From Eledone cirrhosa (taxonomy: Eukaryota), in the NCBI GenBank assembly GCA_964016885.1, contig OZ024757.1, forward strand, positions 33,976,001-34,040,000: 64,000 bases of DNA, read 5' to 3'. Positions 1-47,050 of the stretch are shown one piece after another. The notes below the pieces were generated by a model. The model saw only the letters and a list, made by a program, of their open reading frames with translations. It was not told where the DNA came from and made no database searches. Made by a program: the position numbers and the translations under genes. Position 1 is the first letter of the stretch; every line of letters begins with the position of its first letter.

Positions 1-12
1 ATATATATATTT

Positions 13-124
13 ATAGGAACGAGTAGGACCCCGACGGCTGAGCTCAAGCCGTTTCGACGGCTAATTCCAGAATTACCCGTCGAAACGGCTTGAGCTCAGC
101 CGTCGGGGTCCTACTCGTTCCTAT
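13..124. mobile_element. Fold-back palindrome containing the 3' half of a hammerhead ribozyme (Penelope-like pLTR derivative, family A)
   Basis: ATAGGAACGAGTAGGACCCCGACGGCTGAGCTCAAGCCGTTTCGACGG followed by its exact reverse complement. The + arm reads GAAA(82-85)-CGGCT-tgagctc-AGCCG-TC, i.e. stem III plus a GUC site. Starts in a TA tract; a unique tail runs to ~210. Confidence 0.8.
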
Positions 125-290
125 TACCCACTCTACTACCCTAAGTATTGAGTACTTTGGTGCGTTATGGTCCACTTGCTTCCTTACCACATTTCCTTCG
201 TTACACCATTATATATATATATATATGAGAGTGGATGGTCATGGTTGGATCAGGATTGAGCTGAGGCTAAGCACAGTTGATTCGAAGGCA

Positions 291-3365: not shown

Positions 3366-3499
3366 AAATGTAGAAGTTCTATTTAAATTGTTGGGATACA
3401 ACAAGCAAATATTTTTATAACTGATATAAAGTACTCAACAAATATTTGGAGTAAAAATACGATATTAACAAATAGAAACTATATTTATAAAACCATATT

Positions 3500-3564
3500 T
3501 ATTTCATTATACATATTTCAAGGACACATAGTTAAATTATGGTGTGCTTTCATCAGATAAAATG
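3500..3564 (-). ncRNA. Type I hammerhead ribozyme (family B)
   Basis: Minus strand reads attttat-CTGATGA-aagcacaccataatttaactatgtgtcctt-GAAA-TATGTA-TA-atgaaata. Confidence 0.8.
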
Positions 3565-3665
3565 TAATATAGATCAGTTTTATAAATAAATATTGACATA
3601 CCCTTAAAGAATGCAACCATTACTGTTGGACGCTCCAGGATTTATTTATAAAACTGATCTATATT

Positions 3666-3731
3666 ATATTTTATCTGATGAAAGCACACCATAATTTAAC
3701 TTGGTGTCCTTGAAATATGTATAATGAAATA
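3666..3731 (+). ncRNA. Type I hammerhead ribozyme (family B)
   Basis: Stem I tattttat/atgaaata; CTGATGA 3675-3681; stem II aagcacacca/tggtgtcctt; GAAA 3712-3715; short palindrome-like stem III; UA site; AATAAA just downstream. Confidence 0.85.
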
Positions 3732-3770
3732 AATATGGTTTTATAAATATAGTTTTTATTTGTTAATATC

Positions 3771-3877
<107 letters not shown>

Positions 3878-4201: not shown

Positions 4202-4400
4202 AAGGTGAAACTTGGAGTTTTGTAGGTTCACCCGAGTGAGCACTCGATGTTTAGGTTCACTTCAGTGTGGAGGTGTAGAGCTAGACAGAGTGTATTGTAG
4301 TGAAATAAGATAACAAGGAGGATTGGTTACTCCTTCATTACGTTTATTGAATAAAGGTAATGAAGGAGTAACCAATCGTCCTTGTTATCTTATTTCACTG
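4199..4400. mobile_element. Penelope-like pLTR fragment with terminal palindrome (family C)
   Basis: Palindrome 4299-4399 centred at TTTATTG/AATAAA. 4205-4320 is the reverse-complement homologue of 14354-14470. Confidence 0.7.
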
Positions 4401-14212: not shown

Positions 14213-14473
14213 TAATAAAATAAAACAAGGACGAGTGATTACTCCTTCATTACGTTTATTGGTTGGTGACGCGCGTTTCGCCACCGATCAGCTCAAGGTT
14301 CGATCTGTAATCAACGGCTCGGCGGACTTTTTTTGGTGGTACTAATAGAAGTTGTCCTTGTTTTATTTTATTATACTACACCCTTGTCTAGCTCTACACC
14401 TCGATACAGACGTGAACCTAAACATCGAGTGTTCACTCGGGTGAACCTACAGTAACTCCGCGTTACACTCCCT

Positions 14474-14476: not shown

Positions 14477-14515
<39 letters not shown>

Positions 14516-14554
14516 ATATTAAATAAATGGAAACTATATTTATAAAACCATATT

Positions 14555-14619
14555 TATTTTATTATATATATTTCAAGGGCAACCAAGACAACATTGGTAC
14601 GCTTTCATCAGATAAAATA
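14555..14619 (-). ncRNA. Type I hammerhead ribozyme (family B)
   Basis: Reverse complement of 14775-14838 with small stem II differences; TCATCAG at 14605-14611. Confidence 0.8.
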
Positions 14620-14774
14620 CAAAGTTTGTTTTATAAATAGAGACATACCCATGAAAATCATACCTTATCGGTTGGAAATTCACTGGATAGTCTATCTATA
14701 GGACTATCCAGTGAATTTCCAACCGATAAGGTATGATTTTCATGGGTATGTCTCTATTTATAAAACAAACTTTG

Positions 14775-14838
14775 TATTTTATCTGATGAAAGCGTACCAA
14801 TGTTGTCTTGGTACCCTTGAAATATATATAATAAAATA
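14775..14838 (+). ncRNA. Type I hammerhead ribozyme (family B)
   Basis: tattttat-CTGATGA-aagcgtaccaa-tgttgtc-ttggtaccctt-GAAA-TATATA-TA-ataaaata; perfect 8 bp stem I. Confidence 0.9.
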
Positions 14839-14986
14839 AATATGGTTTTATAAATATAGTTTCCATTTATTTAATATCATTGAATATTTACTCCAGTTAA
14901 CTGTTGAGTGCTCTAAATCAGCTATAAACATTTATATTTGTCGGACTTCCAACAAATTAAATACGACTTCTACTTATATATATACA

Positions 14987-15664
14987 TCGTTTCTGAATTT
15001 GTTTAGCAAGATTCTTTATCTGAAAACGTGTGTTGAAACCGATACTGTTATACTTTGGGAGGGTCATGTTGCCAATGAGAAACACACGCACCAGTTGCTT
15101 TCACTTCAATTTATTATATATTTATAAATTTATAAATTTACAAATTTACAAACTTATAAATTTCTGGTTGGTTGGTTGGTTCCACAACCAGATAGTTGTT
15201 TATATATATAGTCATAGTCCTTTCGTCACACACTCTGTGATGTGGCACATGCACAAACTGAGCACACAACACACACACAGAAACAAAATGGCGTAGGATA
15301 GAAGAAAGAAAAGGCACAGAAACGAAGAAGGAATCCCCAGTCACTGAAGAGGTCACAGAGTGTGTGACGAAAGGACTATGACTATATATATAAACAACTA
15401 TCTGGTTGTGGAACCAACCAACCAACCAGAAATTTATAAGTTTGTAGATTTGTAAATTTATAAATTTATAAATATATAATAAATTGAAGTGAAAGCAACT
15501 GGTGCGTGTGTTTCTCATTGGCAACATGACCCTCCCAAAGTATAACAATATATATATATATTGTTATGCTTCGGGAGGGTGATGTTGCCAATAACAAGTA
15601 TAACAATATCGGTTTCAACACACGTTTTCAGATAAAGAATCTTGCTAAACAAATTCAGAAACGA
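14987..15664. mobile_element. Large fold-back element with hammerhead (family E)
   Basis: Arms 14987-15240 and 15353-15664 around a ~110 nt spacer. Related fragments at 14041-14200 and 33981-34075. Confidence 0.85.
15339..15383 (+). ncRNA. Complete minimal type I hammerhead ribozyme (family E)
   Basis: agtca-CTGAAGA-g-gtcaca-gagtg-tgtgac-GAAA-GGAC-TA-tgact; perfect 5 bp stem I and 6 bp stem II. Confidence 0.88.
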
Positions 15665-15801: not shown

Positions 15802-15895
15802 AATATATCTGAGGACCTTGCGAATGCAAAGTCAGGTTCGATCTGCAATAGATCCTGCCTTGAGCTGATCGTCAGAGAAACATATGTAATATATT
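15802..15895 (+). ncRNA. Hammerhead ribozyme with long, partly decayed stem II (family F)
   Basis: aatatat-CTGAGGA-(61 nt)-GAAA-CATATG-TA-atatatt-AATAAA; palindromic stem III ACATATGT. Confidence 0.7.
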
Positions 15896-15934
15896 AATAA
15901 ATTGTGTTTTGATGCATCACTGATTCCTCGTTAT

Positions 15935-15986
<52 letters not shown>

Positions 15987-15998
15987 ACATAAGAAACG

Positions 15999-16182
15999 TA
16001 AGAAACGGAGAATCAGTGGTGCGACGAATTAAAATGTATTAGACATATTACAATCGTTTCTCTGGCGACCAGCTCGAGGCACGATCGATGCGATGATCGA
16101 ACCTCGAGCTGGTCGCCAGAGAAACGATTGTAATATGTCTAATAAGTTTTAATTCGTCGCACCACTGATTCTCCGTTTCTTA
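15999..16182. mobile_element. Fold-back palindrome centred on hammerhead stem II (family F)
   Basis: Arms pair across TCTGGCGACCAGCTCGAGG...CCTCGAGCTGGTCGCCAGA, followed by GAAA-CGATTG-TA at 16121-16132. Tail is homologous to 15877-15935. Confidence 0.82.
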
Positions 16183-16262
16183 TATGATATTACACTCTGT
16201 TCTGTAAGAGCATAGAAGGCTCAAACGGCCTACCGCATACGGACGCTTTAAGCATCCCACAC

Positions 16263-16300
<38 letters not shown>

Positions 16301-18772: not shown

Positions 18773-19014
<242 letters not shown>

Positions 19015-22559: not shown

Positions 22560-27530
<4,971 letters not shown>

Positions 27531-29684: not shown

Positions 29685-29757
29685 ACTCGGTGAGTTTAGT
29701 CGGTAGAAGACGAGACTCTTAATCTCGGGGACGTTGGTTCGAGCCCCACAGTGGATG
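29685..29757 (+). pseudogene. tRNA-Lys(CTT) pseudogene or tRNA-derived SINE head
   Basis: 73 nt matching eukaryotic tRNA-Lys: AGTCGGTAGA, GAGACTCTTAATCTC anticodon arm and GGTTCGAGCCCCAC B box. Acceptor and D stems are mispaired. Confidence 0.8.
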
Positions 29758-32184: not shown

Positions 32185-32310
32185 AAGTTTTATTTAAATT
32201 GTTGGGTTACAACGAGTAAATATTTATAACTGATATAAAAGCACTCAACAAGTATTTGGAGTATATTTACGATATTAAATAAATGGAAACTATATTTATA
32301 AAATCATATT

Positions 32311-32376
32311 TATTTCATTATATATATTTCAGGGATATCATATTAAAAATATGGTATGCCTTCATCAGACAAAATA
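32311..32376 (-). ncRNA. Type I hammerhead ribozyme (family B)
   Basis: Exact reverse complement of 32509-32574. Confidence 0.82.
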
Positions 32377-32508
32377 CAATATAAACAGTCTTATAAATAG
32401 ATAGATTTGACATACCTTACAGCTTCAACTTCCATTTAAAAAGTTTTAAATGGAAGTTGAAGCTGTAAGGTATGTCAAATCTATCTATTTATAAGACTGT
32501 TTATATTG

Positions 32509-32574
32509 TATTTTGTCTGATGAAGGCATACCATATTTTTAATATGATATCCCTGAAATATATATAATGAAATA
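32509..32574 (+). ncRNA. Type I hammerhead ribozyme (family B)
   Basis: tattttgt-CTGATGA-aggcataccatatt-ttt-aatatgatatccct-GAAA-TATATA-TA-atgaaata. Confidence 0.82.
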
Positions 32575-32614
32575 AATATGGTTTTATAAATATAGTTTCC
32601 ATTTATTTAATATC

Positions 32615-32657
<43 letters not shown>

Positions 32658-45839: not shown

Positions 45840-46298
45840 TGTAGGTGACAACAAAAAGCGCCCCGCCCACACTGTAAAGTGGTCATTTTGGTGCCACGAC
45901 AAAAACTACCCAGTCCACACAGTAAAGTGGTCGTGTAGGTGACACGACAAAAAGCGCCCAGTCCACACTGTGAAGGGCTCAAGTAGGTGACACGACAAAA
46001 CGCGTCCAGTCCACACTGTAAAGTGGTTGTCTAGGTGGCACGAAAAAACGCGTCCAGTCCACACTGTAAAGTGGTTGTGTAGGTGTCACAACAAAAACTA
46101 CTCTTCCACACTGTAAAGTGGTCATGTATGTGTCACGACAAAAAATACCGTCCACAGTAAAATGGTTGTATAGGTGCCACGACAAAAACCGCCCAGTCCA
46201 CACTATAAAGTGGTCGTGTAGGTGGCACAACAAATAGCACCCAGTCCACACTGTAAAGTGATTGTGTGGTACCACGACAAAAAGTGTCCAGTCCACAC
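45840..46298. repeat. ~48-bp minisatellite derived from a dispersed repeat
   Basis: Unit CCAGTCCACACTGTAAAGTGGTTGTGTAGGTGxCACGACAAAAAGCGC. Opposite-orientation arrays at 47780-48145, 49350-49605 and 62800-63060. Confidence 0.85.
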
Positions 46299-46360
46299 TA
46301 TGACCCCGACGGCAGAGCTCAAGCCGTCGAAACGGCTTGAGCTCTGCCGTCGGAGTCATA
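46299..46360. mobile_element. Family A fold-back palindrome with hammerhead 3' half
   Basis: TATGACCCCGACGGCAGAGCTCAAGCCGT-C-GAAA-CGGCTTGAGCTCTGCCG-TC-GGAGTCATA. Confidence 0.75.
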
Positions 46361-47050
46361 CCTTTTCCTATATATATATTAATAGTTTAAATAACACCAA
46401 AAAGTTAAACCATTTAACTCTTGGGTGTTATTTAAACTATTAATTTATAACAGCTCTGCGTGACCTCATTGCATTGAGCTACAAAATACCCTGTAAATGA
46501 GTATAATTACTCCCATTGATATCATAATTATAACTATATTATAATATTAGTAGTACTTATTATATATATATATTTATAAGACAGTAAATAGAGAAAAGTA
46601 CACAAAGAGATGTGTGTTCAATTATAGGAGACATAATACCACCAGAGTGAAAATCATATAATTTACAAACAGAATGGAAAATGCACAAGAATTAAAAAGA
46701 TAAATTAAAGTGTACAGACCATTGTTTATATATATATTTATTAAACATAAGACATTGTTTATATATATTTATATAAACATAAGACAACATAACTGCTCTT
46801 TAGTACCTCCAACTGACTTTCTTTCCAATATATATTTTGCAAAGATCCATCTTACAATGTATAGATTACAATTGCATTGATAATTATATACTATTGTCAT
46901 TTTCCACATGGAAGTTACTAGAAGTTGTCTGTGATCTTAGAAACAAAGGATTTCCTGGGTGGTCACGGCAGGAATGTCTTTGATCATGGATCTGTTGTAT
47001 CAGAACTGATCTGGTGCTAATCAACAACACGAAATTATGTTAGATATATG

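Follow-up and report, generated by a model that had tools for sequence, protein, structure and literature searches.

Head-to-head stubs of a Penelope-like element in Eledone cirrhosa and the fixed 5' edge of their arms

How does half of a ribozyme come to face its own mirror image? The question is raised by a palindrome of 112 nt at positions 13-124 of the 64,000-nt stretch of Eledone cirrhosa contig OZ024757.1 analyzed here (hereafter, the window), which carries the 3' half of a type I hammerhead. A first-pass annotation proposed that the native stem II hairpin of the ribozyme had primed synthesis or served as a template-switch point, deleting the CUGANGA half and making the inverted terminus. 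Alternatively, two cDNAs may have run off the 5' end of an RNA and been joined head to head. The thousands of young, independent insertions in this genome allow such models to be separated by arm ends, tails, and haplotypes.

The palindrome and other fold-backs in the window

The palindrome and its reverse complement disagree at 4 of 112 positions; its fold has a z score of -20.9, none of 200 shuffles being equally good. It is a head-to-head, 5'-truncated insertion of a Penelope-like element (PLE) in a (TA)n run, with a tail on one arm; the first-pass annotation had correctly spoken of Penelope-type inverted termini. The features of this insertion and of related copies in the window are given below, with element position 0 being the first base past the GUC cleavage site.

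1..12, no strand: (TA)n target flank, extending upstream of the window (from sequence)
13..67, minus strand: family A tail-less inverted arm, element -35 to +19 (mapped ends)
66..203, plus strand: family A tail-bearing arm, element -39 to +98 (94% identity to the full-length unit in L262; mapped ends)
82..109, plus strand: 3' half of a type I hammerhead, with GAAA at 82-85, stem III at 86-102, and GUC at 102-104 (sequence; whole-ribozyme fold predicted for a full-length copy)
125..203, plus strand: 79-nt tail, on one arm only (tandem-copy comparison; tblastn)
3460..3771, no strand: family B fold-back with CTGATGA on both arms, a counter-example to loss of the box
14511..14882, no strand: family B fold-back with CTGATGA on both arms, likewise a counter-example
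14987..15664, plus strand: family E fold-back (from sequence)
15806..15932, plus strand: older family F copy with a whole hammerhead, CTGAGGA at 15809-15815
15996..16282, plus strand: family F stub (sequence, mapped ends)
18903..18952, minus strand: family A-like arm that stands alone, without an inverted partner, with TA runs on both sides; start near -33
32270..32615, no strand: family B fold-back with CTGATGA on both arms, a third counter-example
46299..46371, plus strand: second family A stub, of another subfamily (sequence, mapped ends)

The tailed arm at 66-203 comprises the stem II 3' strand, GAAA, stem III, GUC, the stem I 3' strand, and the tail, and it shares 2 nt (66-67) with the inverted arm. 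Cleavage of this copy is predicted at 104/105, immediately before the stem I 3' strand at 105-109. The first 37 codons of the family A open reading frame match window positions 94-204 by tblastn, and in tandem full-length copies the tail continues into the reading frame of the next unit. On its 3' side, the tail is followed by a 7-nt filler and, from about 211, by TA repeats again. Neither a CTGANGA box nor a stem I 5' strand was found upstream of stem II at 13-124, and the RNA of this copy is predicted to fold as a single long hairpin and not as an active-type hammerhead. The observation that an inverted copy of the 3' half stands in place of CTGANGA holds: no box lies 5' of the center. The center itself, GACGG-CTAATTC-CAG-AATTAC-CCGTC at 56-81, had been read as ribozyme stem II directly before GAAA, stem III, and GUC; its coordinates are right, but it is not the native stem II. 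Its left half repeats the stem II 3' strand as a reverse complement, an arrangement that any inversion ahead of GAAA would yield; the native 5' strand and loop have a different sequence.

Copies of this kind are numerous. An exact 32-mer from the tailed arm occurs 7,599 times in the 3.0-Gb genome, the best 40 of 2,129 candidate matches to the palindrome have 98-100% identity across all 112 nt, and 29 of 30 fetched palindrome loci have the 79-nt tail on one arm only, with TA runs outside.

Three further palindromes (15999-16182, 46299-46360, and 14987-15664) exist with their junctions where the annotation had placed them. In the second family A stub, the plus arm (46322-46371) starts at -30 and the inverted arm extends to 46327, giving a 6-nt overlap, AGCCGT; a tandem repeat of about 46-47 nt at 45900-46300 abuts this stub, in which the 3' end of the left arm is missing. 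The family F stub consists of an inverted arm (15996-16104) that retains the native stem II apex and a tailed arm reaching 16282, with a 3-nt overlap at the junction. In the family E fold-back, the left arm stops in the stem II 5' strand, at 15240, and the right arm has a whole ribozyme, with CTGAAGA at 15344-15350. The three family B fold-backs, which keep the box, were absent from the annotation.

Elsewhere in the window, positions 4300-4398 and 14216-14380 hold another family of palindromic stubs along with a longer, related copy whose ribozyme half is F-like. Two arrays of units of about 13 bp lie in opposite orientation at 23281-24924, with 563-nt arms that are 84% complementary, and a weak tRNA-like match at 29685-29757 (29.5 bits, E 0.043) is perhaps the head of a SINE. 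An Rfam scan of the window gave 139 matches, mostly of microRNA models to simple repeats, and none to a hammerhead family.

The source element and its ribozyme

Judged by its sequence motifs, family A is a Penelope-like element with the marks of the Hydra clade. Its full-length source, represented by the unit in L262, consists of 3,542-bp tandem units with an open frame of 784 codons, a long 3' region, and a whole hammerhead of the U3-A8 type; the units form pLTRs, the tail of one running into the frame of the next. Read by eye, the frame contains the YRDD motif of reverse transcriptase (RT) and, at the C-terminus, a GIY-YIG motif (VIY..YIG). It also carries SDKTG, LRWRT (R for K), CNCPDRSIC, CNLC, and CKH, which correspond to Hydra-clade marks in the list cited from PMC8557442. 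Pfam gave no match to this frame or its pieces, and among its 647 relatives at E<=1e-20 one carries a weak RVT_1 match. TTATATA follows the tail in 154 of 173 tail ends, and a near-TA sequence follows in most others, which indicates a (TA)n target. An inverted arm is adjacent to 67 of 93 family A arms, and a single tail per pair is the rule (92 of 94 pairs).

The array in L261-L263 (G000:C1 near 91.47-91.49 Mb), in which at least five units stand head to head with an inverted copy, is probably a locus of the source type and of recent origin. In sequencing run X5, from a second organism, related stubs have the same tail end in TA when compared with L262:6200-6520, in 20 contigs, too few to map an edge. 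Two other classes were considered and rejected: a non-LTR retrozyme, in view of the 3.5-kb source unit with its open frame and the head-to-head stubs, and a MITE, in view of centers that differ in 65 of 67 copies and of asymmetric ends.

According to the predicted fold of a full-length copy, whole family A copies form a hammerhead of type I whose stem II measures 56 nt. In an alignment of 32 whole copies, 89.5% of cells are paired; these copies are very alike, and stems I to III show no covariation above shuffles besides the 3-8 core pair. The native stem I 5' strand reads ATTACCCC. The annotation had expected GTAGGACCCC-CTGANGA upstream of the hairpin in non-inverted family A copies, and this combination was not found. 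Whole copies with CTGAGGA or CTGAAGA do exist and are rare (10 of 69 matches, by eye), and CTGANGA at a short gap before the stem gave 43 matches, all of which appear by eye to be junction by-products or boxes of other families. Among the first 100 of 2,746 matches, the core box is CTGAGAA in 51, TTGAGAA in 49, and CTGAGGA in none (by eye); correspondingly, the 3-8 pair is U3-A8 in 49, a C3/A8 mismatch in 51, and C3-G8 in none. Whole family A copies (e.g., L262, L113, and L064) thus include three core-pair states, C3-G8 (rare), C3/A8, and U3-A8, which may represent a compensatory path caught within one family.

Ends of the arms

We mapped the 5' ends of 93 family A copies from one subfamily and one chromosome, namely the first 93 of the 7,599 exact anchor matches that lay within fetched loci; the anchor sits 3' of the cut site and so does not select for the 5' end. 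In 59 of the 93 copies the arm ends at -45 to -30, a stretch of 16 nt that adjoins the stem II loop on its 3' side. Of the remaining ends, 5 lie at -56 to -46 (partly owing to A/T-run ambiguity), 16 at -29 to 0, and 13 further upstream, none of these longer arms ending at -86 to -57; ends at -775 mark the limit of the reference copy and not an edge. Per nucleotide at risk, the end rate is 0.060 in the peak versus 0.001-0.002 upstream of -87, about 50 times lower, and at -45/-44 the distribution has its hard 5' edge. In the predicted fold, the apical loop is followed on its 3' side directly by base -45. Inside the ribozyme, 62 of 76 ends fall in the 22-nt stem II 3' strand (binomial p 8e-27), and none of the 76 falls in the stem I 5' strand, the core box, or the stem II 5' strand. 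With ends in this strand, the short family A copies have no 5' core box. The breakpoints of family A are thus strongly non-uniform and enriched in the stem II region, as the annotation anticipated.

The same edge appears in other material. Lone arms joined to TA or to flank start at -45 to -39 (L161, L169, L148, L154, and L147), and the summed contig depth of sequencing run X4, which is not a copy number, falls at this point. Genome counts agree in direction, with 12,703 copies reaching -43 and 3,391 reaching -49, but their ratio is unreliable, as one frequent variant escaped the second pattern. Subfamilies hardly differ in sequence 3' of -45, and the loop and 5' strand are variable. T-runs present at the edge fit slippage at a template end, and no consistent cap-derived extra G precedes it. 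A splice acceptor at the edge was considered and rejected, given that arms often run through to -45 and that no constant upstream exon is present.

A smaller accumulation may exist at the ribozyme cut site. Nine of 267 arms start at -1 to +1, a small excess, and 6 of 23 TA-joined arms start at 0 (by eye, with 21 loci containing an inverted stub set aside as favored by the search pattern). This peak is only suggestive because the G run at the site offers microhomology.

Other families end elsewhere. In family F, for which the 30 best of 1,664 tail-match candidates supplied 51 arms, 19 arms end at -119 to -110 and 3 beyond (one of them doubtful); 11 end in the 62-nt stem II, where they are spread without a peak, and 32 keep a CUGANGA-type box. 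The F edge lies 35 nt upstream of CTGAGGA, and long F copies exist. In family E (30 of 346 candidate loci; 53 arms after TA-only rows were dropped), ends are scattered over more than 1 kb without a hard edge, a cluster at -895 being the limit of the reference copy; the single end in stem II belongs to the copy in the window. The box is kept in 53 of 60 family B arms and 12 of 12 family H arms, and the edges of F, B, and H all lie outside the ribozyme. The supposed stem II hotspot in unrelated families was therefore seen in none of F, E, B, and H, most of whose arms retain the CUGANGA box.

Taken with these data, the hypothesis that the native stem II hairpin primes synthesis or switches template, and in doing so removes the CUGANGA half, is very unlikely. 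It accounts for the position of family A ends in the stem II 3' strand and fits the window's F copy at 15999-16182, which retains the apex and switches at a 3-nt stem pairing; this copy, 1 of 30 F loci, is the sole case in the window that matches the annotation's model. Yet the native stem II 5' strand is kept in none of 87 short family A fold-backs, the ends peak beside the loop whereas a stall would be expected at the stem base, and partnerless arms have the same edge. Furthermore, long inverted arms join 100 to more than 2,000 nt upstream of the ribozyme, so that, contrary to what had been suggested, Penelope inverted termini as a whole cannot be put down to stem II.

What, then, sets a fixed edge? 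The edges are family-specific, with motifs of the CA/TA-TTT type: TTCA^TTT in A and GACA^TTT in F. By eye, the A and F edges begin with ATTT after C (or T), and those of B and H lie near TTCA. TCATTT, at the family A edge, fits the insect initiator consensus. In family F, AGACGTAT at +28 matches 7 of 8 letters of RGACGTGY, the downstream motif of the Penelope internal promoter in the passages cited from PMC2377424; similarly, the cited text of PMC3846280 calls ACATT and TCACT in rotifer pLTRs initiator-like. The +28 motif of F coincides with the stem I 5' strand of the ribozyme and may have two roles (e.g., in L285). No good downstream promoter motif is present at +28 in family A or, by eye, at the H and K edges. 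From the copy ends and these motifs, we infer that the family A edge is likely an internal transcription start within the stem II loop. A family A transcript would then begin inside the hammerhead, and its 5' end would therefore hold only half of the ribozyme.

Alternatively, the RNA could be cut in the apical loop of stem II by a host nuclease or by structure-specific processing, with joining as in the two-cDNA model. Since family A lacks the +28 motif and its edge coincides with the loop, such a cut retains some probability, and the absence of a cap-derived G agrees with it. We nevertheless regard it as distinctly unlikely: in F, B, and H the edge is located outside the ribozyme, in F it has both initiator-like and +28 motifs, and among subfamilies the sequence 3' of -45 is nearly constant, the loop and 5' strand being variable.

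Joining of the arms

The junctions of family A are distinct in 65 of 67 cases and contain 0-6-nt overlaps or short templated and A/T fillers, indicating that inverted termini are rebuilt at each insertion. The stubs might instead be a short, non-autonomous SINE- or MITE-like element amplified as a unit from one master, an origin for which the 112-nt form, present in at least 40 copies at 98-100% identity, could speak. Against this stand the differing centers in that unselected sample of 67, the tail, which lies on either arm relative to the center even in those near-identical copies, and the haplotypes of the stubs, which match full-length subfamilies. We consider amplification from one master highly improbable.

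The properties of paired arms suggest how these termini are built. The tail-less arm reaches further 5' in 28 pairs, the tailed arm does so in 28, and the two are equal in 10; tail-less arms can be up to about 1,700 nt longer than tailed ones, and in L121 a tailed arm from -45 is joined to a tail-less arm of more than 1,000 nt. Tailed arms have tail-less partners in 66 of 67 cases. Arms of a pair also resemble each other: long arms are paired with long ones in 8 of 9 cases and short arms with long ones in 2 of 64 (Fisher p 3e-8), the core-box haplotype is common to both arms in 28 of 30 long pairs (by eye), and in 37 pairs there are 2.2 differences within insertions versus 5.5 between them. 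Long-pair distances were set aside, as truncated arms inflate them. As the two arms agree in subfamily and in length class, both are usually made on one RNA. Six clean joints, however, combine two families in the order (TA)n, inverted A, other family, (TA)n (L031, L047, L053, L070, L083, and L160): family A is joined with H or K, each arm starts at its own family's edge, and TA lies outside both ends. Five of the six came from a pattern that selects them and one was among the 93 unselected copies.

Three loci (L040, L056, and L080) have a more complex form, in which an inverted E or F-like arm is followed by a short fold-back of that arm ending in stem II and then by a family A arm. They are joints of three parts or else nested insertions accompanied by deletion.

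One explanation is that a single cDNA runs off the 5' end, snaps back by microhomology, and copies itself, after which deletions at the tip scramble the center. Arms that nearly always belong to one subfamily and length class would follow naturally, and private changes common to both arms in L111 and L129 and the short snap-back fillers at junctions (L121, L160, L169, L040, and L080) also agree with it; the cited portion of PMC3846280 proposed self-priming from junction palindromes. Templated fillers in L169, L121, L191, and L129 can be read as snap-back of a flank end or as terminal bases of an arm that were copied more than once. However, this course predicts that the tailed arm is always longer at its 5' end, which the balance of 28 versus 28 and tail-less arms that are hundreds of nucleotides longer contradict; it cannot yield two-family joints or L121, and it needs an extra rule by which second-strand synthesis halts at the tail boundary. 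Later deletion at palindrome tips might likewise produce symmetric arm lengths. Since such deletion may blur arm lengths and snap-back fillers do occur, self-priming of a single strand keeps some weight, although it seems rather unlikely.

We favor, with restrained confidence, the joining of two separately primed cDNAs that run off the RNA 5' end, which would likely be a transcription start in the stem II loop. The RNA of a tandem copy would start at the edge and carry both RT start sites, namely the tail boundaries, twice, at 64-143 nt from its 5' end and once more at its 3' end. The element protein would nick both strands of the (TA)n target and, on a single RNA, prime a cDNA from each of the two start sites, so that the 5' pair of sites would give two short run-off cDNAs and the 3' pair two long ones. 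The cDNA ends would then be trimmed and joined by microhomology. Short copies would lack the CUGA-type box by virtue of its position upstream of the RNA start and not through removal by a hairpin. These steps have a counterpart in vitro: in the text cited from PMC11167929, a Penelope protein, predicted to be dimeric, cuts and extends both strands, and RT starts at the two tail boundaries.

A more specific version is tentative and, to our minds, falls a little short of an even chance. The stubs would be strong-stop-like products of one dimer and one RNA, with two cDNAs primed from both strands of a cut TA run; at the 5' start sites both would run off the transcription start, and occasionally the two cDNAs would be of different families. 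The stubs would in this way also disclose how the inverted terminus is made. The 5' end of a family A RNA would then be half a ribozyme, and to complete it could only pair with the remaining half in the 3' pLTR.

The insertions thus argue against priming by the ribozyme hairpin and favor the end-joining of two cDNAs. Should the edge be the RNA start, the promoter of each family can be mapped from stub ends, and many half-hammerheads in such genomes would be dead by construction, which matters for ribozyme counts.

Comparison with known systems

The formation of tandem and inverted PLE ends is named as an open question in the cited part of PMC8557442. A PLE layout in which an inverted copy is truncated at its 5' end and only one terminus bears a tail is described in the passages cited from PMC8557442 and PMC3846280. 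As described there and in the cited text of PMC2377424, EN+ PLEs resemble family A in their pLTR tandems, head-to-head inverted copies, single-ended tail, pLTR-borne hammerhead, insertion into a microsatellite, and microhomology junctions. Family A differs from those described in consisting mostly of 60-140-nt stubs, in its fixed 5' edge, in its two-family joints, and in a tail of 79 nt as opposed to 30-40. We found no description of a fixed run-off edge or of two-family joints in the passages of the PLE literature cited here.

With the Hydra clade, in the portions cited from PMC8557442, family A shares DKT, RWR in place of RWK, the CxCX5C linker, and CxxC and CxH motifs around E and N, as well as (TA)n insertion and a hammerhead. 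Placement is by motifs, and the unit of 3.5 kb compares with generally less than 3 kb in that clade; most whole family A copies are also set apart from it by their U3-A8 or C3/A8 cores. The minimal type I hammerheads of PLEs in the cited text of PMC4209133 likewise have a long helix II whose 5' end carries an unpaired base, a helix I of 4-5 bp, a palindromic loop 3, and motif pairs on opposite strands, and the U3-A8 core is common to family A and the Cercyon elements of Schistosoma. In contrast to those hammerheads, family A has a helix II of 56 nt, a helix III of 5-6 bp, and, in half of the whole copies, a mismatched C3/A8 core.

In vitro, Poseidon from Anolis resembles family A in having two RT start sites that bound the tail, a tail inside the frame, and an AT-rich target; both strands are extended, and hammerhead cleavage is dispensable. 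Poseidon belongs to a different clade, and the main text of PMC11167929, in the parts cited, contains neither inverted joints nor run-off stubs. The self-priming model in the cited portion of PMC3846280 is the idea of the first-pass annotation in general form, without the tie to a ribozyme stem. Both the layout and the self-priming idea are therefore already published, and the useful part of the present data is the fixed run-off edge and the two-family joints. These joints, together with the symmetry of arm lengths in family A, oppose the single self-primed strand of that model.
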